In this document: positions 40,340 to 50,804 of the stretch, one piece after another
Position numbering within the stretch: the stretch's first letter is position 1
Layout: every line of letters begins with the position of its first letter
NCBI GenBank assembly: GCA_041309365.1
Contig: JBFYZU010000103.1
Location: 1,463-65,462, forward strand
Length of the DNA stretch: 64,000 nt
Reading direction: 5' to 3'
Origin: Myxococcota bacterium
GTDB lineage: Bacteria; Myxococcota_A; Polyangia; DRWM01
The notes under the pieces: generated by a model
Databases searched by the model: none
What the model was told of the DNA's origin: nothing
The model's input: only the letters and a program-made list of their open reading frames with translations
Program-made: the position numbers and the translations under genes

Positions 40340-41263
40340 TCACTTCTCGAACAGCCACGTGCTGAGGTAGCGCTCTCCCGAGTCGGGCAGGACCACTACG
40401 ACGACCTTGCCCGCATTCTCGGGCCTGCCCGCCACCTGAACGCCCGCCCAGAGGGCCGCGCCGGATGAGATCCCGGCGAGAATGCCCTCCTCGCGGGCGA
40501 GACGTCGCGACATCTTTTTTCCATCATCGTGGTCGACCACGATGATCTCGTCGATCAGGCTGGTGTCGAGCACGTCGGGCACGAAGCCGGCACCGATGCC
40601 CTGGATCTTGTGCGGCCCGGGTGCTCCTCCCGAGAGGACCGGAGAGCCCGCCGGCTCCACTGCCACTGCCCTGAAAGAAGGCTTTCTCTTCTTGAGCACC
40701 TTGCTCACTCCTGTGATGGTGCCGCCCGTCCCCACGCCCGAGATCAGGAAATCGATCGTGCCGTTCGTGTCGGTCCAGATCTCCTCGGCCGTCGTCATCA
40801 TGTGGGCCTGCGGATTGACCGGGTTTTTGAACTGCTGGGGCATGAAGGCCCCGGGCGTGTTTCCGACAATCTGTTCGGCCCTGCGGATGGCACCGGGCAT
40901 TCCCTCGGAGCCGGGCGTGAGCACGAGCTCGGCACCGAACATCCCCAGGATCTGACGGCGCTCGACGCTCATGGTCTCGGGCATGGTGAGCAACAGTCGG
41001 TACCCCCTGGCCGCGCAAACGAACGCCAGCGCTATTCCGGTGTTGCCACTCGTCGGCTCCACCACGAGCCCACCCGGCTCGAGCGATCCGTCACGCTCGG
41101 CGGCCTCTATCATCGCGAGCCCGATGCGATCCTTGACACTGGAGCAGGGATTGAACGACTCGAGCTTGACGACGAGATCCGCGCCGAGATCCTTTCCGAG
41201 GCGGTTGAGCTTGACCAGCGGCGTCCTTCCCACGAGCTCGGTGATGCTGCTGGCGATGGGCAT
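40340..41263 (-). CDS. cysK: cysteine synthase A (O-acetylserine sulfhydrylase)
   Basis: PLP-lysine block [25 protein letters not shown]. Confidence 0.9.
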
Positions 41264-41379
41264 GACTCATGCTTTCCGTGAATGGTGCACCATTTGAGTA
41301 CACCTAGTTCCGACCCGGACCCAGTCAACCCCTGCCCAGGCTCGCTCCTTGTCCGCGATCGGCGAAACCTTGCGGACGA

Positions 41380-42360
41380 TCAGATCCGGGTGGCCGAGAT
41401 GACGGTTGACTGATTGACGCACCCGGACCCGAAGCACCCGTACGGGGTGGAAGGAGTGAACGTGGCTGTCCACAGGCCATCGAAGTGGTCCACGTCCGTA
41501 AAGTCGCCTGTGATGTTGTAGTACTCGTTACAGGCCCCGGACACGGTCTGGCTCACCGAGAAATGGAGATCTCCGGGCACCGGAACCTGCGTGAGCCGCA
41601 GGGTCCCCGCTGTGACCTCCAGGCTCATGCCCACCACATCGAAGCAGATCTGGCTGAAGTCATAGTTCACGTGCCCCAGCGCGCAGGTCTGTGTGATGGC
41701 GGCAGAGAGCGAGAAACAGCCCGAGTAGGGGTTCACCGGGCATTCGTCGGCACAACCGGTGATCGTGGGATCGCAAACGAAGGTGCACATGTTCTCCACC
41801 GTGTCGCAGGAGTCCACGGTGCACGGATCGGAGTCTGCGCACTCGCGCGGGCCAGAGGGCGGCATGCAGCCGAACTCGGGGTCGCATCTCTCCTCGCCGT
41901 TGCAAAAATCGTCGTCCTGGCAGTCCTCGTTGGTCGTGCACTCCACCGCGTCGAGCACGCACCCGGTTTCCTCGCAGTGCTCTCCCACCGGGCAGGTATC
42001 CTCGTGGTTGCAGGTGTGATCGATAAGGCAGGTGTCTTCCGTGCAGGCCAGGGAATCGTCGCATTCGCCGTCGCTCATGCACTCGTACGACAAGCAGCCC
42101 AGCAACGGGTCACAGGTCTGCCCGTAGGGGCACTCGTCGTCGTCGGGCTCGAACAGGCAGCAGCCACCGAAGACGCAGGTATCGCGCGTGCAGTCCACGC
42201 CGTCGTCGCACTCGTCGATGCCGGAGCAGACCTGCGTCTCGCACGTGATCTCGGCCACGTCCTGGTCCGTGGCCGTGTCCATGCCGGGCACGCCTCTGGC
42301 CGTACTGCACCCCACGAGCAGAGAGGCGAAGATCGCGAACACCCAGAAGTTTCTTCTCAT
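41380..42360 (-). CDS. Cys-rich repeat lipoprotein (myxobacterial cysteine-rich repeat type)
   Basis: Lipobox SLLVGC. About 45 Cys in DxxxCxxDxC-type repeats. C-terminal Cys-poor beta-rich domain. Confidence 0.55.
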   Translation of the reverse strand: MRRNFWVFAIFASLLVGCSTARGVPGMDTATDQDVAEITCETQVCSGIDECDDGVDCTRDTCVFGGCCLFEPDDDECPYGQTCDPLLGCLSYECMSDGECDDSLACTEDTCLIDHTCNHEDTCPVGEHCEETGCVLDAVECTTNEDCQDDDFCNGEERCDPEFGCMPPSGPRECADSDPCTVDSCDTVENMCTFVCDPTITGCADECPVNPYSGCFSLSAAITQTCALGHVNYDFSQICFDVVGMSLEVTAGTLRLTQVPVPGDLHFSVSQTVSGACNEYYNITGDFTDVDHFDGLWTATFTPSTPYGCFGSGCVNQSTVISATRI

Positions 42361-42387
42361 GGCTGCGTTCCTCCGGACGAAGGCTCT

Positions 42388-43242
42388 CTAGTGCCGCACC
42401 CCTCCGATGGTGATGGTCTGGGGAGAGCACAAGCAGGACGACACCTTGACCTCGGACCAGGTCGCGATGAGGTTGTCCGAATTGACGAAGTTGCCACTGA
42501 GGGTGGCCTGTATGCAGCTGTATGTGCCGGTCACGCTGAAGCTCGCGTCGGCGGGCGAACTGCCTGTGAGCGTGAATGGTCCGGCCTGGACCGTGAGAGC
42601 TCCTCCGTAGTTCGTGAAGCTCAGCTGGAGCACGTGATAGGAAACGGATCCGCACTCCTGGGCAATGGTCGGGCTGGTGTCGAACAGGCCGTTGTAGTGC
42701 ACTGCAGGATCGAAGACATCACCGGTCAACGTGTCCGTCGGTGCGTCCGACTCGCACTCCGGGTGGGTCTCGTACTCGCACGAGTCGGTGTCCTCGTTGC
42801 AGTAATCGATGGTGCAGCTGTTGCCGTCGTCGCATGAACGCGGCGTGGACGAGGGCACGCAGGTGATCCCGAAGCAGTTCTCCACGCCGTTGCACCACAG
42901 GCCGTCGTCGCAGTCCGCATCGGAGCTGCACCCGCTGATGCAGCCTTCCATGAGCGAGCAGTGCTGGCCATCGGGGCAATCGTCGTCGTCGGGGTTGTGA
43001 GAGCAGGTTCCTGCCACGGTGCACAGATCCGTGGTGCACTCGATGCCGTCGTCGCACTGCGCGTGGCTCGTGCAGGTGACAGGGGACGTGTCCACCCCCA
43101 TGTCCGAGCTGTCACCTGGAACATCCACGGCTTCGGCCGGCGCGTCGGTCACGGCGTCCAGGTCGATGCCGGGTGTCTCGCCTGGAGAGCAACCGAGCAC
43201 GGCGAGAACCGCGAACACGGTGGCGTTGTGCCGCCGGCCCAT
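42388..43242 (-). CDS. Cys-rich repeat lipoprotein, paralog of the upstream gene
   Basis: Lipobox AVLGC. Same architecture: Cys-rich DxxxC repeats plus a C-terminal beta-rich domain. Start chosen at MGRRHNATVF. Confidence 0.5.
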   Translation of the reverse strand: MGRRHNATVFAVLAVLGCSPGETPGIDLDAVTDAPAEAVDVPGDSSDMGVDTSPVTCTSHAQCDDGIECTTDLCTVAGTCSHNPDDDDCPDGQHCSLMEGCISGCSSDADCDDGLWCNGVENCFGITCVPSSTPRSCDDGNSCTIDYCNEDTDSCEYETHPECESDAPTDTLTGDVFDPAVHYNGLFDTSPTIAQECGSVSYHVLQLSFTNYGGALTVQAGPFTLTGSSPADASFSVTGTYSCIQATLSGNFVNSDNLIATWSEVKVSSCLCSPQTITIGGVRH

Positions 43243-43316
43243 GATTTCACCAATGATATTCATGAGTAAGAAGTAGCACGGAATCGTGCATCGGGCAACC
43301 GAACAGGAGATCCTGC

Positions 43317-44807
43317 TCATGCCCTGCGCAGGATGGATCCGAAGCCCACGATGAAGTAGCCGAACAAAAACAGGAGAAGAAACGGCACGGCGCTGAAATG
43401 GCCCCCCTCGAGGGCGAGGTACAGTGTCAGTGCGAAGTACAGGCCGAACAGGATCTCGAACAGGCTGATGGCGCTCTTGACCGGCCTGTACATGTGCTGC
43501 GGCCTCGTGGCCGGCACCGTGGCCGGCTGGGTATCGGTTCCCGTCTTGGGCGTGCGGACGAACTCCGCCTTGGTTCCGAACATGCCCTCGAGAACCGCGC
43601 GGGCGTTGTTGAGGCTGATGCCGATGCCCACCATCATCAGCGCTGGCAATAAGAGGAGGCCTCCGAGCCAGCGGCCGTGCACGACCCTGTGAGTGACGAG
43701 GTAGAACATGGCAATGGCGCAGGTGGTGCTAAAAAACAGCGGCATGTCCACGAGGAGGACTTCCTTGAGCCCTTGCTCGGTGCGAAACATGATGGTGGGC
43801 AAAATCAGGATGGCCAGCGGCACCATGAGCACGTAGGCCACGTTGTTCGTCAGGTGAAAGAAGGCCTCGATCTTGACCTTGAGCGGGAGGTCCGCCCTGA
43901 GCACGGGCCACAGAAGCTTGCGCGCCGTCTGCATCGAGCCCTTGGCCCAGCGGAACTGCTGCGCCTTGAAGCTGTTGAAGTCCTGGGGCAGCTCCGCGGG
44001 CGAGATCACGTCCGGGCGATAGACGAACCGCCAACCGCGCATCTGCGCCCTGAAGCTCAGGTCCATGTCCTCCGTGACCGTGTCGTGCTGCCAGCCTCCG
44101 GCATCCTCGATGGCCGCCTTGCGCCAGATGCCAGCTGTTCCGTTGAAGTTGAAGAAGCGTCCCGTGCGGTAGCGGGCGTTGTGCTCGATGAAGAAATGGC
44201 CGTCGAGCATGAGCGCCTGCACGCGAGTGAGCAGGCTCTGGTCCTGGTTGATGTGGCCCCAGCGGGTCTGCACGACAGCCACCTTCGGGTCCGTGAAGTA
44301 GTGGACGACCTCTCGGAGCATCTGCGGGGCAGGGACGAAGTCCGCATCGAAGATGGCGATGAAGTCGCCCCTGCAGCTCCTCATACCGTGCTCGAGGGCC
44401 CCGGCCTTGTAACCCGTCCGGTCCGCCCTGTGGATGTAGCGGATGTCGATTCCCTGCTCCGAGAAACGCCTCACGAGCCTGCGCACGATGTGCTGGGTCT
44501 CGTCCGTGGAGTCGTCGAGGACCTGGATCTCCAGCCTGTCCCTGGGATAGTCGAGCTTTGTGGCCGCCTCGATGAGCCTCTCGGCCACGAACTTCTCGTT
44601 GTACATGGGCAGCTGCACAGTCACCACGGGCAGCTTCTCGAACCGGGCCGGCTCGGGCTCCACGTAATTGCGGGACCTCCAGAACAGGTACATGAGCCCT
44701 GCCCTGTGGACTCCGTAGAGGGAAAGCAACCCGAGCACCGCAAGGTAGCCCATGATGAAGACATCATCGATCCCGATACTGTCGATCATGATCCCTAAAC
44801 TCCTCAC
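43317..44807 (-). CDS. family 2 processive glycosyltransferase (cellulose/chitin/hyaluronan synthase-like)
   Basis: D, DxD (FDADF), TED and QxxRW (QQFRWAKG) motifs. Multiple C-terminal TM helices. Confidence 0.8.
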   Translation of the reverse strand: MRSLGIMIDSIGIDDVFIMGYLAVLGLLSLYGVHRAGLMYLFWRSRNYVEPEPARFEKLPVVTVQLPMYNEKFVAERLIEAATKLDYPRDRLEIQVLDDSTDETQHIVRRLVRRFSEQGIDIRYIHRADRTGYKAGALEHGMRSCRGDFIAIFDADFVPAPQMLREVVHYFTDPKVAVVQTRWGHINQDQSLLTRVQALMLDGHFFIEHNARYRTGRFFNFNGTAGIWRKAAIEDAGGWQHDTVTEDMDLSFRAQMRGWRFVYRPDVISPAELPQDFNSFKAQQFRWAKGSMQTARKLLWPVLRADLPLKVKIEAFFHLTNNVAYVLMVPLAILILPTIMFRTEQGLKEVLLVDMPLFFSTTCAIAMFYLVTHRVVHGRWLGGLLLLPALMMVGIGISLNNARAVLEGMFGTKAEFVRTPKTGTDTQPATVPATRPQHMYRPVKSAISLFEILFGLYFALTLYLALEGGHFSAVPFLLLFLFGYFIVGFGSILRRA

Positions 44808-44932
44808 CCCCGGCTGATCGCACCGCCAGAAAACTGCTGCACATCCTATTTTGTAGACCCCTGGAAATTGTCACGGGAATGTAAATATTTGTCCCGAAAT
44901 GTATAATATGTCATTGATATCAACGAGTTGCC

Positions 44933-45979
44933 ATGATACCGCCACGGCCGCTCGGGCACAAGTTTTCTGCACTTGCTCCTGCCCACACCTTGGCTAGAAT
45001 GGACGCCGGATCGACACCCATGACAACCGCCTTTCTCATTGGCCGGGTCCGGGGCGTGAAGCGCTGGATCCAGCTTCTGTGGCTGCTCGTGCCTGCACTT
45101 GCGCTGGTTGAGGTGGGCCACCATGTCTGGATCGAATCCAGGGTGCCGGACAGTCGTGACTGGCAGCAAGCGACTCGGCTTGTGGAAGCGGGCCGCCAGG
45201 CTGGAGATCTCGTCGTGATCTCGCCGTGGTGGGCCTCGCAGGGCTTCATCTGGCTGGGTCGGTTCGTGACCGTCGAGCAGATGGCCCGAGAGGATGACGA
45301 GGGATATGGCCGGATCTGGGAGGTGGCCCTGCCTGGACACCGCCAGGAAGGTTACGAGAAGAAGGGCAAGCTCCTCAAGGAGGACAGGGCGGGGTGCCTG
45401 ACCGTGAGGCTCTGGTCGTTTCCACGAACGCCAGCAACTCTTTTCGACTTCGTCGAGCAAGTTGAAACGAGGGCCAGGGTGTCCATGGTGCCCTCGGCTG
45501 GCGGGCCCGAGGAACCCTGCGTGTTCAGGGCCAACCCCAAGACCGGCTTGGTGCCAAATGCCGCTGTTCAAGGAGGAAAGTTCCGCTGCGACCAGAGGCT
45601 TGCATGGAACTACGTAGCGCGCGAGGTCATCGCCGACCTCGACAACAGGCCCCGTCTCTGCCTCTGGGCTCACCCCATCGACGGCAAGCGCATCGTCATC
45701 GAGTTCTCGGGCGTCCCGGAGGGCGGCGTGATCGAAGGGCACACGGGCAAGAAGTACGAGGCCGACAGGGAGCACGTCGAGCGCCCGCCGATCCTGCTCC
45801 AGGTGAACGCGGCAGGCAAGACCGTGGGTACGGCCATGCACGTGCAGGGCGGTGGCTGGATGCCCTACAGCTTCGATCTGGGGCCAGAGGGTACTGCTGG
45901 CAAGGTCACGTTCGAGGTCTCGAGCGCACAGGCCGGGATGGCCCATTTCTGCTTCACGGCCAAGCTGAGGGACGAGTGA
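44933..45979 (+). CDS. hypothetical membrane-anchored protein
   Basis: One N-terminal TM (WIQLLWLLVPALALV) then a soluble domain. Its stop overlaps a GTG of the downstream GT39 gene. Confidence 0.4.
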   Translation: MIPPRPLGHKFSALAPAHTLARMDAGSTPMTTAFLIGRVRGVKRWIQLLWLLVPALALVEVGHHVWIESRVPDSRDWQQATRLVEAGRQAGDLVVISPWWASQGFIWLGRFVTVEQMAREDDEGYGRIWEVALPGHRQEGYEKKGKLLKEDRAGCLTVRLWSFPRTPATLFDFVEQVETRARVSMVPSAGGPEEPCVFRANPKTGLVPNAAVQGGKFRCDQRLAWNYVAREVIADLDNRPRLCLWAHPIDGKRIVIEFSGVPEGGVIEGHTGKKYEADREHVERPPILLQVNAAGKTVGTAMHVQGGGWMPYSFDLGPEGTAGKVTFEVSSAQAGMAHFCFTAKLRDE

Positions 45980-46002
45980 CGGCTGGCCTGGCACCGGGCC
46001 CC

Positions 46003-47703
46003 ATGCCCGGACGCACCCGGATCGCGGCGCATGCCCTGGGATTGGCCATCGGCACGCTGTACGTGGTCTTGCTGGTCGCAACGGCTTCCGACGTGGGGTT
46101 CGCAAGGGACGAGGGCTTCTACTTCACGGCCGCGGAGCAGTACATGCGCTGGTTCGACTTCATGCGTGAGGACCGGGCCGCGGCCATGACGCAGGAAGGA
46201 GTCGACCGGTTCTGGCGTATCAACAGCGAGCACCCGCCGCTGATGAAGGTGCTCTTCGGCCTGAGCCACAAGCTTTTCGCCGAGAAGCTGGGGTGGATGC
46301 TCGAGTCCACGGCCTACCGATTCCCCGGCATGATCATGGGAGGGCTGCTCCTCTATCTCGTGGTACTGTTCGGAACCTCCATCGGCGGTCTCAGGACGGG
46401 TGTGGCCGCCGCGATCGCCCTCGCCCTCATGCCCAGGTTCTTCTACCACGCGCACCTGGACTGCTTCGATGTGCCCATCACCACCATGTGGTTCGCGGTC
46501 GTGTATGCGTTCTACCGGTCGCTGCGCTCGTGGGCATGGGGCATCGTCACTGGGCTATTGTGGGGGCTGGCCCTGGCCACCAAGCTCAACTCGTTCTTCA
46601 TCCCGGTCACGCTGCTCGTTTTCTGGGTCGTGCTGTACGTGAGGGAGTTCGGGCTCGAAGGGCATGGAGACGCTCCGGGCAGGGGCAGGCTCAGGCTACC
46701 CGGCATCCCCGTGGCCTTCGTGTCCATGGTCACCCTGGGACCGCTGGTACTCTTCGCCATGTGGCCCTGGCTCTGGCACGACACGTTGGAGCGCTTCGGC
46801 GGCTACATGGGATTTCACCGGCACCACCCGTACTACAACATCGAGTATCTCGGTTACACCTACTTCGAGCCCCCGTTCCCCTTCTCCTATCCTTTTGTCA
46901 TGACCCTCGTCACGATCCCCCTGGTGACCACGGTGCTGGCGCTGACGGGCATGGCAGGCAGGCTCGTGACCTCCACACGGCGCATCCTGGGAGGGATCTC
47001 GCCTCTTGCGCTCGAGACCCTCGTGCACGAGCGGACACAGCGAGGCATCACTCTTCTCCTGTTCCTCAACATGCTCGTGCCCATGCTCATCATCGCCTGG
47101 CCGAGCACCCCCATCTTCGGTGGCACAAAGCACTGGATGCCGGCCTGGCCCTTCATCGCCCTGTTCACAGGCCTGGGCTTTGGCATGGCGGCCGACGGTG
47201 TGACCGGGCTCATGGAACGGGCGCCCGCGTGGTTGCGCGCCGGCGCGGGAGGCAAGCGCGTCGTCGCGGCCGGCCTGGGGCTCCTGCTCTTGGCACCGGC
47301 CGCCCAGCAGACACAGGCGAGCCACCCCTTCGGTCTGGCCCACTACACGATGCTCATCGGCGAGACACCGGGAGCCGCGGACGCCGGCATGTGCCGCCAG
47401 TTCTGGGGCTACACCACGGGAAGCGCCCTGGGATGGCTCAACGAGAACGTACCCGAGCGTGGCAGGACGTTCTTTCACGACACGGCCTGGGACAGCTACA
47501 ACATGTACAAGAAGGATGGGATGCTCAGGAACGACATCCTTTGGCACGGGCAGGTGGAAGGCTCGGACGTGGCCATGGTGCACTGGGAGCAGCACATGGC
47601 TGGCTACGAGTATGCCATCTGGACATCCTATGGCACGGTCACACCGGCGTTCGTGGTGACCCACCAGGGAGTCCCCATACTGCCCATCTACGTGTCTCGT
47701 TGA
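46003..47703 (+). CDS. GT39/ArnT/PMT-like membrane glycosyltransferase
   Basis: Polytopic membrane protein with DE motif in the first loop (ARDEGFYF), typical of GT-C PMT_2 family enzymes. Alternative GTG start at 45976. Confidence 0.65.
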   Translation: MPGRTRIAAHALGLAIGTLYVVLLVATASDVGFARDEGFYFTAAEQYMRWFDFMREDRAAAMTQEGVDRFWRINSEHPPLMKVLFGLSHKLFAEKLGWMLESTAYRFPGMIMGGLLLYLVVLFGTSIGGLRTGVAAAIALALMPRFFYHAHLDCFDVPITTMWFAVVYAFYRSLRSWAWGIVTGLLWGLALATKLNSFFIPVTLLVFWVVLYVREFGLEGHGDAPGRGRLRLPGIPVAFVSMVTLGPLVLFAMWPWLWHDTLERFGGYMGFHRHHPYYNIEYLGYTYFEPPFPFSYPFVMTLVTIPLVTTVLALTGMAGRLVTSTRRILGGISPLALETLVHERTQRGITLLLFLNMLVPMLIIAWPSTPIFGGTKHWMPAWPFIALFTGLGFGMAADGVTGLMERAPAWLRAGAGGKRVVAAGLGLLLLAPAAQQTQASHPFGLAHYTMLIGETPGAADAGMCRQFWGYTTGSALGWLNENVPERGRTFFHDTAWDSYNMYKKDGMLRNDILWHGQVEGSDVAMVHWEQHMAGYEYAIWTSYGTVTPAFVVTHQGVPILPIYVSR

Positions 47704-47792
47704 CGCGTCGACCGGTTCCCATTACATTTACAACTTAGTTGGAATCCCGACGCACGGACATTCAGTGACCCCCACAAGGGGAGGAGCCAGCA

Positions 47793-49436
47793 ATGATACG
47801 AACTCTCGTGGCAACAGCCGCCATCTCCTTGTTGTCCCTGATGGCAGGGCGCGTCGAGGCAGGCGATCCCATGGACATCGAGGCCATCAACGCAGCCATA
47901 GAAGCGTCAGGGGCGAACTGGGTAGCCGGCCCCACCTCGCGAACAGGGATGGACCCTGCCGAGAGGTCCTTGCCCAGCCTCGAGCAGGTGCTCGCCGGCA
48001 TGGCCCCTCCCTGGACCCCGGCGCCGCCCTCGGGCCTGCCACCAGCACCGCCCCCACCCACCCCCGACCCGGATGCCGTGCGTCTCGCCTGGAACGACTA
48101 CGAGGGCGCGGACTGGATGACCGAGATCAGGGACCAGGGCATGTGCGGAGGGTGCTGGGCCTTCGCCTCGCTGGCCGCGGTGGAAGGGTGCTACAACGTG
48201 GCTCTGGGCACACCCTATGCGGACATCGACCTTTCCGAGCAGGTCATCATCTCGTGTACCACGGGCGGATGCAGCGGCGGAATGCCCGAGCCCGTCGTGC
48301 AGTACCTGCGCACCACAGGCGTGCCGGACGAGCAGTGTTACCCCTACACGGCAACGGACGGCGACTGCGACAGCAAGTGCGCCGACTGGGTCGAGCGCTC
48401 GTTCACCATCTCTCGCTGGGGCTGGGTCTTCGACCTCTACGGCCAGGAGCAGGCAATCAAGAACCGCTTGCTCACAGGCCCCGTGTACTCCTCCATGACG
48501 GTGTACTCGGACTTCAATGCCTACACCACGGGCGTCTACGAGCACGTGACGGGCGCCGAGGAGGGAGCCCACGCCGTGACCATCGTGGGTTGGGACGACG
48601 ACCACGACAGCTGGATAGTCAAGAACTCGTGGGGGACGTTCTGGGGAGACGAGGGGTACTTCGAGATCAAGAGAGGCGATTCCGACATCGGTATGCACGT
48701 TGTTTACGTAGAGGTCAACCCTGCGGATCTTCCAGGGCACCCCTGCATCCTGCCCCAGAGTCGGTCGATCGAGGTTGTGAGCGGCGGCGATCCCGTGACC
48801 CTGGAGTTCTCCATGACAAACTGCGGCGGGACCACCCTCGACTGGACCGCCACACCGGATCCCACAACGGGATGGCTGTCGGTCACGCCGGAGTCGGGGA
48901 CGCTCCTCATCGGTGCAGGCACGGTGCTGACCGCGACCGTGGATCCGGAGACGCTCACGAGGCTCGGCCCGTGGGCCGGTTCGGTGGTCGTGCACGGAGG
49001 CGTGAGCGACGCACGCGGCCACATCGACATCGAGGTGGTGAGCACACCTTCCGAGGCGGACTTCACGGCCACGCCCACGAGCGGCCCCGTGCCTCTCGAG
49101 GTGGATTTCACGAACACGTCCACGGGCACGTTCTTCACCTCGAACTGGACATTCGGTGATGGAGGCATACTCAACGGACGCAACGCGACGCACCTGTACG
49201 AGGAGGAAGGGGTGTACACGGTCTCCTTGAGCATCACCGGGCCGGACGGCACGGACACCGAGACCAAGGAGGAGTACATCACCGTGCTCCCACCCGCGCC
49301 GGACCCCCTTCCGGACGAGGTCGCGGACGAACCGGCGGACGTGGAACCGGACGTCGCGACCGATGCGCCGCAGGACACCACGGAGACACCCGGTACAGGC
49401 GCCGATCCCGGATGCGGCTGTGCCATGGTGCACTGA
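47793..49436 (+). CDS. secreted papain-like (C1A) cysteine protease with PKD domain
   Basis: Catalytic QGMCGGCWAFAS. His block (HAVTIVGWDDD) and NSWG block. PKD signature WTFGDG...GVYTVSLSITG. Signal peptide. Confidence 0.8.
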   Translation: MIRTLVATAAISLLSLMAGRVEAGDPMDIEAINAAIEASGANWVAGPTSRTGMDPAERSLPSLEQVLAGMAPPWTPAPPSGLPPAPPPPTPDPDAVRLAWNDYEGADWMTEIRDQGMCGGCWAFASLAAVEGCYNVALGTPYADIDLSEQVIISCTTGGCSGGMPEPVVQYLRTTGVPDEQCYPYTATDGDCDSKCADWVERSFTISRWGWVFDLYGQEQAIKNRLLTGPVYSSMTVYSDFNAYTTGVYEHVTGAEEGAHAVTIVGWDDDHDSWIVKNSWGTFWGDEGYFEIKRGDSDIGMHVVYVEVNPADLPGHPCILPQSRSIEVVSGGDPVTLEFSMTNCGGTTLDWTATPDPTTGWLSVTPESGTLLIGAGTVLTATVDPETLTRLGPWAGSVVVHGGVSDARGHIDIEVVSTPSEADFTATPTSGPVPLEVDFTNTSTGTFFTSNWTFGDGGILNGRNATHLYEEEGVYTVSLSITGPDGTDTETKEEYITVLPPAPDPLPDEVADEPADVEPDVATDAPQDTTETPGTGADPGCGCAMVH

Positions 49437-49448
49437 GGAACAAGGCAC

Positions 49449-50804
49449 ATGAAACCGCAAGATCTCGTCACGGTCGTCACGCTGCTGTGCATGGGATGCG
49501 GAGGAACCGTGAGCACGGCCGGCGATGCGGGTGCGGACTGGACGAACGATATCGCGATGGACATCGGGCATGACGGCATCCTCGTATGCGGAGACGAGCG
49601 TACGCCTCCGGGGGGCGGCTCGTGGCCCATCGTCAACGGAAGCCTCGTTTGGGATACGGCGGTCGTGGATCTCGCGGACGGTCAGGCGCTCGCCGTGGGT
49701 GCGCTCATGTCACAGGGATACGGCGGCGAGTGGGACAATATCTGCACGGCCACGCTCGTGGCTCCGGCCCTCGTGCTCACGGCAGCTCACTGCGTGCGAG
49801 GCTGGAGCGGCGACGAGCCCGCGTCCTCTTTCCGGTTCGCCGTGGGAGACGACGTGGCTTCGCCCGTGCACATGTATGCGCCCATTCTCGCCCAGTCCAA
49901 CCCCAGCTACGCCGGAAGCTGGGGTGGAAGCGCCGAATGGGACGTGGCCGTGCTCGTGCTCGGCGAGCCCGCCATGACGGCCGTGCCTGCCATCGAGCCC
50001 ATCCCCATGAACTGCGAGGTCATCGAGTCCACCGCGTTCGTTGGACAGGATGTGCAGAACGTCGGGTACGGGATCACGGACACCGACTGGGGCGCTTTGC
50101 CCAACACGCTCAGGTGGTGGACAGTGGAGGAGGTCGTGGCGCTCGGCGCGTACGACTTCACAGTGGACGGTCACGGTGTGAGCAGCGTGTGCAACGGCGA
50201 TTCTGGTGGACCCAGCCTGTGGACCATGCCGGACGGCACGATCCGGGTCATGGGCACCGTGAGCTGGGGCGCACCCGACTGCGTGAGCGAGGATCACTTC
50301 GCCCGCGTGGACTACAACTGCGGTTTTATTTCTGGATTCCTCGAGAGCTGCGGTGAAGTCACGCCGGAGGGGTTCTGCGACGGCGACCAGGCCGTCTGGT
50401 GCGAGGGTGGCTCGCTCACTCGCGTAGACTGCGCGGCCTCGGGCCGCATCTGCGCCGACGACGGTACGGGACACATGCGGTGCATCGACCTTTCCGACCC
50501 CTGCGGCGATGTCACGGAGCAGGGCACCTGCGAGGGCAACACGGCCGTCTGGTGCGAGGCAGGGGCGCTGATGAGCCTGGACTGCGCCTTGACGGGGCTT
50601 GTCTGCGGTGACGATGGCACGGGTCGCATGCGCTGCCTCGAGGAGGATCCCTGCTTTGGCCTGGGATGGGAAGGCGCCTGTGAGGGCAACGACGCGATAT
50701 GGTGCGAGGATGGAAACATCCGCCGCCGCCTGTGCACGGACTGCGGCCAGATCTGCGGCTTCGACACGGACATGGGTGCCTACTACTGTATTGACCCGGC
50801 CTGA
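49449..50804 (+). CDS. trypsin-like (S1) serine protease lipoprotein with four C-terminal Cys-rich repeats
   Basis: TAAHC, DVAVLVL and GDSGGP triad blocks. Lipobox LLCMGC. 4 x about 40-aa CxGxxAVWCExGxLxxxxCxxxGxxCxDDGTGxMRC. Confidence 0.8.
   Translation: MKPQDLVTVVTLLCMGCGGTVSTAGDAGADWTNDIAMDIGHDGILVCGDERTPPGGGSWPIVNGSLVWDTAVVDLADGQALAVGALMSQGYGGEWDNICTATLVAPALVLTAAHCVRGWSGDEPASSFRFAVGDDVASPVHMYAPILAQSNPSYAGSWGGSAEWDVAVLVLGEPAMTAVPAIEPIPMNCEVIESTAFVGQDVQNVGYGITDTDWGALPNTLRWWTVEEVVALGAYDFTVDGHGVSSVCNGDSGGPSLWTMPDGTIRVMGTVSWGAPDCVSEDHFARVDYNCGFISGFLESCGEVTPEGFCDGDQAVWCEGGSLTRVDCAASGRICADDGTGHMRCIDLSDPCGDVTEQGTCEGNTAVWCEAGALMSLDCALTGLVCGDDGTGRMRCLEEDPCFGLGWEGACEGNDAIWCEDGNIRRRLCTDCGQICGFDTDMGAYYCIDPA

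Follow-up and report, generated by a model that had tools for sequence, protein, structure and literature searches.

Three probably separate modules lie side by side in a 6.3-kb stretch of Myxococcota DNA

On balance, the 6.3-kb stretch described here probably consists of three juxtaposed modules with separate histories and does not form one lipoprotein-glycosylation system. The modules are a pair of lipoproteins (lipoB and lipoA), a membrane-integrated glycosyltransferase (GT2), and a bitopic membrane protein (p348) encoded next to a second glycosyltransferase (GT-C). The earlier note on this DNA had proposed a surface polysaccharide or protein-glycosylation locus, with the lipoproteins as possible substrates or adhesins. 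A glycan locus built on GT2 and GT-C is plausible, but the lipoproteins as a part of it, in either role, are unsupported: because only the GT2 and p348/GT-C modules stay linked elsewhere, nothing marks the lipoproteins as substrates of the enzymes. The three-module result thereby keeps an unsupported "lipoprotein glycosylation locus" annotation from spreading. The features are listed below, with coordinates in the window, which is the whole 64-kb stretch of DNA that was analysed.

41380-42360, minus strand: lipoA, 326 aa, the downstream, A-type member of a conserved pair
42388..43242, minus strand: lipoB, about 284 aa, the upstream, B-type member; the ORF reaches 43320
43317..44789, minus strand: GT2, membrane-integrated; the ORF opens with GTG at 44807
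44868..44907, plus strand: array of phased direct repeats, operator-like, between the divergent genes
44933-45979, plus strand: p348, bitopic membrane protein, conserved upstream partner of GT-C
46003-47703, plus strand: GT-C, 566 aa, PMT_2 family, GT-C fold

An ORF check recovered every gene of the earlier description at the same coordinates. The lipoproteins had been placed upstream of GT2, and this order is reversed: the coding strand is the minus strand, with GT2 as the first gene and the lipoproteins downstream of it. The lipoB ORF has an ATG at 43320 that overlaps the GT2 stop codon; the start is most likely M27 (43242), because the signal peptide begins there and relatives are called at 285-289 aa. 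In the public annotation of the same DNA, GT2 has 490 aa and starts at 44789. Homologues of p348 are about 300 aa long and span no more than about 86% of its 348-aa ORF, suggesting that its true start probably lies near 45000-45020. In the window and in close relatives, GT2, lipoB and lipoA share a strand and are spaced by about 75 and 27 nt, and terminator-like hairpins showed no excess over chance in this stretch. The pair is probably co-transcribed with GT2 in the window's lineage, which could reflect a lineage-specific functional recruitment and is no demonstration of shared function.

The separation into modules comes from comparative synteny. Conserved linkage of the glycosyltransferase genes to the lipoproteins in related genomes had been expected, and the comparison went the other way. 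At 78 loci carrying GT2 orthologues of 45-55% identity, neither tblastn nor profile HMMs detected a homologue of the lipoproteins, of p348 or of GT-C within 10 kb. The GT2-lipoB-lipoA linkage was found only in relatives whose GT2 is 75-79% identical, with the order kept in L001, L003 and L007; because about 20 kb is collinear in those relatives, function and recent common descent are inseparable as explanations of it. The distant lipoprotein loci were sampled sparsely (about seven independent loci, several with short flanks), and within that sample the neighbourhoods of pairs at about 40% identity are unrelated and contain no glycosyltransferase. No GT2, GT-C or p348 lies near the pairs in L087, L088, L095 and L097 or near the solitary lipoA of L005. 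The association of GT2 with GT-C, in contrast, held up: GT2, p348 and GT-C are divergently linked in L089 and L175 despite changes in both flanks, with GT2 about 61% and p348 51-53% identical, and neither locus has the lipoproteins. Linkage of GT2 to p348/GT-C with shared operator-like repeats is seen in one clade, in which GT2 is at least 61% identical. These distributions suggest an insertion of the lipoprotein pair downstream of GT2 that is particular to the window's immediate lineage.

The region between the two enzyme modules had been described as an AT-rich divergent promoter (44808-44932), and the 125-nt gap is indeed the regional GC minimum (0.54 over 400 nt). It contains the repeat array TTGTCAC-gggA-ATGTAAA-tatt-TGTCCC-gaaa-TGTATAAT, with TGT cores at 44869, 44880, 44890 and 44900, the last of which overlaps a TATAAT at 44902-44907. 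The string TGTCA-N5-ATGTAA is unique within the 64-kb window, where 0.15 occurrences are expected. The operator-like repeats are kept at the same place in L001, L003, L007, L008, L089, L174 and L175, whose genomes range from 38 to 70% GC. More widely, TGTCA-N6-TGT(C/A)A with 11-bp phasing occurs 5' of GT2 in L043, in L071/L072 and in the clade of the window; with at most one mismatch allowed, it is present at seven loci against 0.7 expected, a count that comes from only about three independent lineages.

GT2 matched Pfam Glyco_tranf_2_3 (6e-32), and its catalytic motifs D98, D154xD156, T244ED and Q283QFRW align with those of BcsA, which is also its nearest solved structure by sequence (6e-25). 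One N-terminal and about five C-terminal transmembrane segments place the GT-A domain in the cytoplasm. The enzyme had been called a processive GT2 on account of QxxRW; the motif is present as QQFRW, but QxxRW alone is no proof of processivity. The check for a BcsA-like PilZ domain or gating loop that had been proposed gave a divided answer. The Pfam scan found no PilZ match, and the protein ends at residue 496, right past the last transmembrane segment, whereas F416-V-R-T-P-K421 precedes the last two transmembrane segments and matches the BcsA gating loop FxVTxK at F, T and K, with V replaced by R. GT2 shares with the BcsA, PgaC and NodC synthases a GT-A domain with D, DxD, TED and QxxRW and transmembrane helices after the catalytic domain, and it carries a gating-loop-like F-x-R-T-x-K, but it has only 496 aa and lacks PilZ, a BcsB- or PgaD-type partner and outer-membrane export genes. 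Two specific identities were rejected. A BcsA-type cellulose synthase equivalog is contradicted by scores far below cut-off (CelA, NCBIfam TIGR03030, 140.6 bits against 699.1, E = 4.8e-41), by the missing PilZ, and by the absence of a BcsB-like gene among the called genes of the locus and its relatives; a PgaC/IcaA PNAG synthase equivalog fails at 126.7 bits against 422.3 (TIGR03937, E = 1e-36). The score against NF008558 was 106.5 with a cut-off of 992. The GT2 family is found at 45-55% identity in Myxococcota, Planctomycetota and Spirochaetota, and the recurrent neighbours at the 78 loci are apparent ribosomal proteins, RpoA, a HIT-family protein and PrmC, which look housekeeping as far as identities read off cluster representatives, not from a family search, can tell. 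Judged by sequence, GT2 is a stand-alone, membrane-embedded beta-glycosyltransferase of the BcsA/PgaC/NodC type whose orthologues are single genes in predicted housekeeping neighbourhoods of three phyla.

The same features allow a different assignment, which we consider possible and still rather unlikely: GT2 could be a membrane-lipid glycosyltransferase of the MgdA, Pgt or ceramide-glucosyltransferase type that makes a glycolipid and not a polysaccharide, and it might be induced by phosphate limitation through PhoB-like direct repeats. The stand-alone occurrence in apparently housekeeping neighbourhoods of three phyla, with no export partners, is consistent with this idea, as are a passed Pfam GT21 (ceramide glucosyltransferase) threshold (53.4 bits against 21.7) and the phased TGTCA-N6-TGT(C/A)A repeats, the enrichment of which is tempered by the few lineages behind it. 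Synechocystis MgdA (Sll1377) and Pgt-type enzymes, compared by architecture only, are similar to GT2 in size and layout and in being a stand-alone gene, with transmembrane helices at the N- and C-terminal ends of MgdA flanking a cytoplasmic glycosyltransferase domain (PMC3916417). However, GT2 is closer to the polysaccharide synthases, since its matches to CelA, BcsA and PgaC are far better than those to ceramide glucosyltransferase (3e-7) and HpnI (5e-16), and polymer-translocating synthases typically have about six transmembrane segments together with an FxRTxK loop, as GT2 does.

The lipoproteins had been described as paralogues with a lipobox, Cys-rich repeats and a beta-rich C-terminal domain, and each of these points was borne out. 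Pairwise BLASTP aligned the two across both the Cys-rich region and the C-terminal domain (E = 2e-30, 31% identity). Lipidation is predicted from the signal peptide, with lipoboxes LLVGC18 in lipoA and AVLGC18 in lipoB and a lipobox cysteine that is nearly invariant among 53 homologues; Ser at +2 suggests that both proteins are probably sorted to the outer membrane. Past the lipid-anchor cysteine, the linkers contain Ser, Thr and Pro (that of lipoA is short and Ser/Thr-containing) and could serve as O-glycosylation sites. LipoA has 31 cysteines in residues 40-207, forming a disulfide-rich stalk of two type-1 repeats and one "DGDFCNG...PEFGC" module, and lipoB has 17 in residues 57-163; it lacks one of the repeats and ends in the same barrel. 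The C-terminal domain was modelled by AF2 at a pLDDT of about 96 and is, in lipoA (about 208-326), an 8-stranded calycin-like barrel. The Cys-rich repeats of both proteins matched no NCBIfam family at E<=0.01, including the TraA repeat model TIGR04201. Against Pfam Dicty_CTDC, lipoB reached 20.3 bits with a cut-off of 27 and lipoA had no match; some homologues carry a precomputed match to PF00526.

The avidin biotin pocket is Trp-rich. In the avidin-family comparison the 8-stranded barrel fold was present in the lipoproteins, but identity to avidins was 8-11% (8-13% to avidin and lipocalin barrels together), and the Pfam scan matched the barrels to neither avidin nor lipocalin. The barrel residues conserved in the family are G214, C226, F267, G275, E279, Y281, G285, F287, F293 and C314; because no Trp is among these columns, the barrel looks unlike an avidin-type biotin pocket. 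With no Pfam match, 8-11% identity and no conserved Trp, we rejected membership in the avidin family by sequence. Avidin, streptavidin and the bacterial lipocalin Blc also differ in that the lipoprotein barrel is fused to a Cys-rich stalk. A related design is TraA of Myxococcus xanthus, a PA14 domain on a Cys-rich stalk with a MYXO-CTERM anchor (PMC3325183). Both systems hold a binding domain on an envelope-attached stalk of repeats that resemble Pfam Dicty_CTDC (PMC3325183), but the lipoproteins reverse the polarity, with an N-terminal lipid anchor and a C-terminal calycin barrel in place of PA14, and they occur as two paralogues, B and A, and lack a TraB-like OmpA partner.

The pair is ancient. 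LipoB precedes lipoA in all eight loci with enough upstream sequence, and a neighbour-joining tree split all upstream (B-type) barrels, a clade of their own across 8 loci, from all downstream (A-type) barrels, so the duplication is older than these lineages. We conclude that lipoB and lipoA are an ancient paralogous pair, always together and in the order B then A.

Actinobacterial PMTs mannosylate lipoproteins. That precedent favours a reading, unlikely in our view, in which GT2-lipoB-lipoA is a functional operon in this lineage only and the PMT_2 GT-C O-glycosylates the lipoproteins, or they serve as surface anchors or adhesins for the GT2 product. The shared strand, short gaps and kept order would fit it, as would the Ser, Thr and Pro of the linkers and the myxobacterial example of a glycan-binding domain on a Cys-rich stalk, TraA (PMC3325183). 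However, the linkage is gone where the flanks had time to change, as in L089 and L175, and distant B-A pairs have no glycosyltransferase nearby. The barrel looks like the small-molecule-binding avidins and lipocalins and not like lectins or CBMs; the CBM-like domain of the locus is on p348, and GT-C scores below the Pfam PMT threshold and showed no MIR domain in the Pfam scan.

GT-C had been labelled GT39/PMT-like. The broader part of this label stands, since the protein matched PMT_2 (PF13231) above threshold (1e-10, 42.5 bits against a gathering score of 26.1). GT39 is not supported: Pfam PMT (PF02366) gave 17.8 bits against 22.7, the Pfam scan found no MIR domain, and searches with a single sequence or a profile detected no solved GT-C relative, including PMT or ArnT, among PDB chains at E<=1. 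The protein has multiple transmembrane segments and ends in a soluble domain of about 120 aa. Just after TM1, R35-D36-E37-G38 is invariant in 7 homologues; it provides the acidic DE motif of the first outward-facing loop, a motif common to many GT-C families and therefore not diagnostic of GT39. The partner of GT-C, p348, is anchored by an N-terminal transmembrane helix and continues into a periplasmic alpha/beta domain, with a CBM-like beta-sandwich at the C-terminus. The two genes were found side by side in six independent contexts, at identities as low as 30%, and the 150 listed p348 representatives are all too short to be fusions with GT-C. Mycobacterial EmbC/AftD and PMT_2 enzymes of the ArnT/PMT type share the multi-transmembrane GT-C architecture, an acidic DE motif in the first loop facing outward and the association with a CBM-like beta-sandwich, but here that domain is unfused, on a separate bitopic protein encoded just upstream.

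To our knowledge, GtrB-type enzymes lack QxxRW. A classical three-component periplasmic glycosylation system, in which GT2 would charge polyprenyl phosphate and GT-C would transfer the sugar outside the cytoplasm, has the hallmark pairing of such systems (PMC11127046) and the linked modules with a shared operator in one clade on its side, but is improbable given a GT2 with about six transmembrane segments, QQFRW and a gating-loop-like motif where GtrB-type enzymes have a 1-2 helix anchor (PMC11127046), no GtrA-like flippase among the called genes of the locus or its relatives, most GT2 orthologues lacking GT-C nearby, and p348-GT-C pairs occurring without a GT2 of this family.

Under the three-module reading, GT2 would draw on a UDP-sugar from the cytoplasmic side and deliver a beta-glycan or glycolipid through or into the inner membrane. 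p348 and GT-C would form a two-subunit, periplasm-facing glycosyltransferase, with a polyprenyl-phosphate sugar as the likely donor and the CBM-like ectodomain of p348 holding the glycan acceptor. The two enzyme modules are probably co-regulated through the shared operator in one myxobacterial clade, and they may act on the same glycan. LipoB and lipoA would each be a lipid-anchored, rigid, disulfide-knotted Cys-rich stalk holding an 8-stranded calycin (avidin/lipocalin-like) barrel. The two would act jointly, and probably as a heteromer, to bind a small or amphipathic ligand at the envelope or cell surface. It seems a long shot that they form a heterodimeric avidin/lipocalin-like receptor on disulfide-knotted stalks, a new myxobacterial class of envelope binder, and that this lineage brought it into the GT2 operon, where it captures or anchors whatever glycan or glycolipid the co-regulated GT2 and p348/GT-C machinery makes.

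Each module is a unit that can be studied by itself. The order-conserved pair of stalked calycin-barrel lipoproteins is so far uncharacterised and belongs to a family of 58 clusters without a Pfam or NCBIfam model; the cellulose-synthase-like GT2, conserved at 45-55% across the three phyla, is a second testable unit. The p348 family comprises about 1900 unannotated representatives at 50% clustering, CBM-like bitopic partners of PMT_2 GT-C enzymes, and suggests a split design of enzyme plus acceptor-binding subunit for bacterial GT-C transferases. Separately, a GT2 homologue (P0018, 62%) and a p348 homologue (P0202, 45%) both list a longest contig of 3326 nt, which hints at a possible further linked case.

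All five genes that the earlier note had gathered into a single surface polysaccharide or protein-glycosylation locus, with the lipoproteins as possible substrates or adhesins, were present in the ORF list.

Features of the five-gene stretch (genes from the ORF list, repeats from the sequence)
41380-42360, minus strand, lipoA, the downstream (A-type) Cys-rich lipoprotein, 326 aa
42388-43320, minus strand, lipoB ORF, the upstream (B-type) Cys-rich lipoprotein
43317-44807, minus strand, GT2, a stand-alone cellulose-synthase-like enzyme
44868-44907, operator-like phased direct repeats within the 125-nt gap between GT2 and p348
44933-45979, plus strand, p348, a 348-aa ORF for a bitopic membrane protein
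46003-47703, plus strand, GT-C, a PMT_2-family enzyme

CysK/CysE flank the stretch at one end; at the other lie a papain-family protease that carries PKD domains and a second, trypsin-like protease. Because GT2 and both lipoprotein genes lie on the minus strand, they are transcribed in the order GT2, lipoB, lipoA, which places the lipoproteins downstream of GT2 and not upstream as had been proposed. The AT-rich divergent gap between GT2 and p348 was found as described, at the GC minimum of the region (0.54). Three start codons, those of lipoB, GT2 and p348, probably need adjusting. The first ATG of lipoB overlaps the GT2 stop codon, the signal peptide begins 26 codons on, at M27 (43242), and relatives are called at 285-289 aa. 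The public record of the window starts GT2 at 44789, giving 490 aa. Homologues of p348 are ~300 aa long and cover ~86% of the ORF, with ~30-45 N-terminal residues of the public 348-aa call absent from them. We consider it probable that the lipoB (43242-43320) and p348 (44933-45020) start codons are placed too far upstream. Scans for sigma-70 promoters and terminators returned sites no commoner than in shuffled sequence, so the operon boundaries are putative, and an Rfam scan of 41000-48000 gave nothing beyond one chance sub-threshold match.

The proposal of one locus proved half right: GT2 and the p348/GT-C pair are linked in one clade, whereas the lipoproteins are an independent module. The closest loci in other genomes (L001, L003 and L007; GT2 75-79% identical) keep a neighbourhood of ~20 kb whole, in the order FliH, DUF4352, trypsin, C1 peptidase, GT-C, p348, GT2, lipoB, lipoA, a collinearity that is uninformative on function. 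Scanning 185,579 species genomes for GT2 orthologues yielded 80 loci. Within 10 kb of the 78 loci at 45-55% identity, which come from Myxococcota, Planctomycetota and Spirochaetota, neither tblastn nor profile HMMs detected a lipoprotein, p348 or GT-C homologue; the recurrent neighbours look like housekeeping genes, as judged by reading cluster representatives. At two loci, L089 and L175, GT2 is divergent to p348-GT-C in flanks unlike those of the window and without the lipoproteins. Two others (L090, L091) carry p348-GT-C without GT2, and L092 carries a 60% identical GT2 without the pair. Taken together, these arrangements indicate that the linkage of GT2 to p348-GT-C is real but confined to one clade, within which a co-regulated glycan module of GT2 and p348/GT-C is plausible. 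Linkage of the lipoproteins to GT2 is limited to the window's nearest relatives. We also considered L093 and L174, contigs from the same sample, as halves of one split locus and rejected this, because their ends do not overlap and their GC contents differ.

The two lipoproteins are paralogous, as had been suggested (E=2e-30, 31% identity), their C-terminal domains included; one ~47-aa repeat of lipoA is missing from lipoB. Both carry a lipobox with Ser at +2. Across 53 aligned family members the Cys spacing is invariant within two module types, one reading 'C-x5-C-DDG-x2-C-T-x-D-x-C...' and the other 'DGDFCNG-x-E-x-C-x-PEFGC', and a C-terminal domain of ~120 aa is conserved. Searches of curated families gave nothing in NCBIfam and, in Pfam, Dicty_CTDC at 20.3 against a cut-off of 27. 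The C-terminal barrel shares only 8-13% sequence identity with avidin and lipocalin barrels; it is thus like them in predicted fold but does not belong to those sequence families. We found no described counterpart of the lipoproteins in the literature. In architecture the closest precedent is M. xanthus TraA, whose binding domain is mounted on a Cys-rich stalk (PMC3325183); the lipoproteins have the opposite polarity and another kind of head domain.

Lipoprotein homologues of ~40% identity occur at L005, L087/L094, L088 and L095-L098, and no GT2, GT-C or p348 gene is present in the available flanks of these loci. With a barrel-only HMM, a B-type gene was found directly ahead of its A-type partner in 8/8 loci with sufficient upstream sequence. 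In a neighbour-joining tree the upstream barrels form one clade and the downstream barrels the other grouping. Conserved order and tree separation together show that the A/B duplication is ancient and that the pair is the conserved unit; its adjacency to GT2 is lineage-specific. Such a pair could act as a heteromeric ligand-binding device. In a metagenome scan with a subset of the lipoprotein alignment, most hits were unrelated Cys-rich-repeat proteins and the only true family members were L094-L099.

Several observations concern the surroundings of the pair. In a marine (TARA) Polyangiaceae contig (L005/L006, 9753-10001), the B-type barrel before the A-type gene is reduced to an 83-aa fragment, which may reflect a frameshift in the B gene or its decay. 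A conserved secreted protein of 336/338 aa precedes the pair in the distant loci L005 (8322-9332) and L087 (8087-9103), 51% identical between the two and ending in a GCGC-hydrophobic-Arg-rich segment that resembles MYXO-CTERM. We rejected it as a third conserved partner, since the window encodes no homologue of it and it resembles an unrelated protein of the MYXO-CTERM type. Both loci also have a UDP-glucose pyrophosphorylase (UDPGP) gene 4-9 kb downstream. The A-type gene is followed by cysK in the window, in L099 (31-690, 772-1689; cysK 67% identical) and in L003 (11066-12920, with cysE besides), whereas in L001 it directly adjoins a PilT-like T2SSE gene, indicating local rearrangement at this border even among close relatives.

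GT2 has D98, DxD, TED and, as the QxxRW motif of the earlier note, QQFRW, along with ~six TM segments. An FVRTPK loop is present and a PilZ domain is absent. The best-scoring models were those of cellulose synthase and PgaC, yet far under their equivalog cut-offs, and the nearest solved structure was BcsA (6e-25). GT2 does not match the GtrB type of polyprenyl-phosphate transferase. It does exceed the threshold of the Pfam GT21 model. Its layout is that of the glycolipid synthase MgdA, so a lipid acceptor is possible. GT2 may be a beta-glycan or a glycolipid synthase. Literature searches returned no described counterpart of this family; like the lipoprotein and p348 families, it is uncharacterised and built from known folds.

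The gap between GT2 and p348 contains the repeats TTGTCAC-N4-ATGTAAA-N4-TGTCCC-N4-TGTATAAT, that is, four TGT(C/A)(A/C/T) direct repeats with TGT cores 11, 10 and 10 nt apart. Within the 64-kb window the core pattern occurs once (0.15 expected), and it is conserved at the equivalent place in L001, L003, L007, L008, L089, L174 and L175, with GC contents from 38% to 70%. Phased direct repeats of this type are typical of OmpR/PhoB-family binding sites, and those at 44868-44907 look like a putative operator of that type. Pho-box-like TGTCA-N6-TGTCA direct repeats also precede distant GT2 orthologues in a Myxococcales MAG (L043) and in Leptospira-like Spirochaetota (L071/L072). With <=1 mismatch allowed, 7 loci from only ~three independent lineages carry such repeats, against 0.7 expected from shuffles.

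In 6/6 independent contexts examined, p348 lies immediately upstream of a PMT_2 GT-C, with homologues in L089, L175 and L174 (50-53% identity), L091 (35%) and L090 (30%). It matches no Pfam or NCBIfam model and has a CBM-like periplasmic beta-sandwich. Clustered at 50%, the family comprises 1906 representatives. Most of the 150 listed measure ~300 aa, and none of them has the length that a p348-GT-C fusion would need. GT-C carries an invariant RDEG motif after TM1. It passes PMT_2 but not PMT, and neither single-sequence nor profile searches found a solved relative, so its assignment to GT39 is not established. In having a separate CBM-like partner, GT-C appears closer to polysaccharide-directed enzymes such as EmbC and AftD than to protein mannosyltransferases, and we infer that it would act with p348 as an acceptor-binding subunit. 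Two proteases follow GT-C in the window (47793-50804): a papain-family (C1) enzyme that combines BACON and PKD domains, and a trypsin-like one with three Cys-rich repeats at its C-terminus. A C1/BACON/PKD protease also lies 1.4 kb downstream of GT-C at the more distant locus L174 (4530-6155), so a loose association of this protease with the GT-C module is possible.
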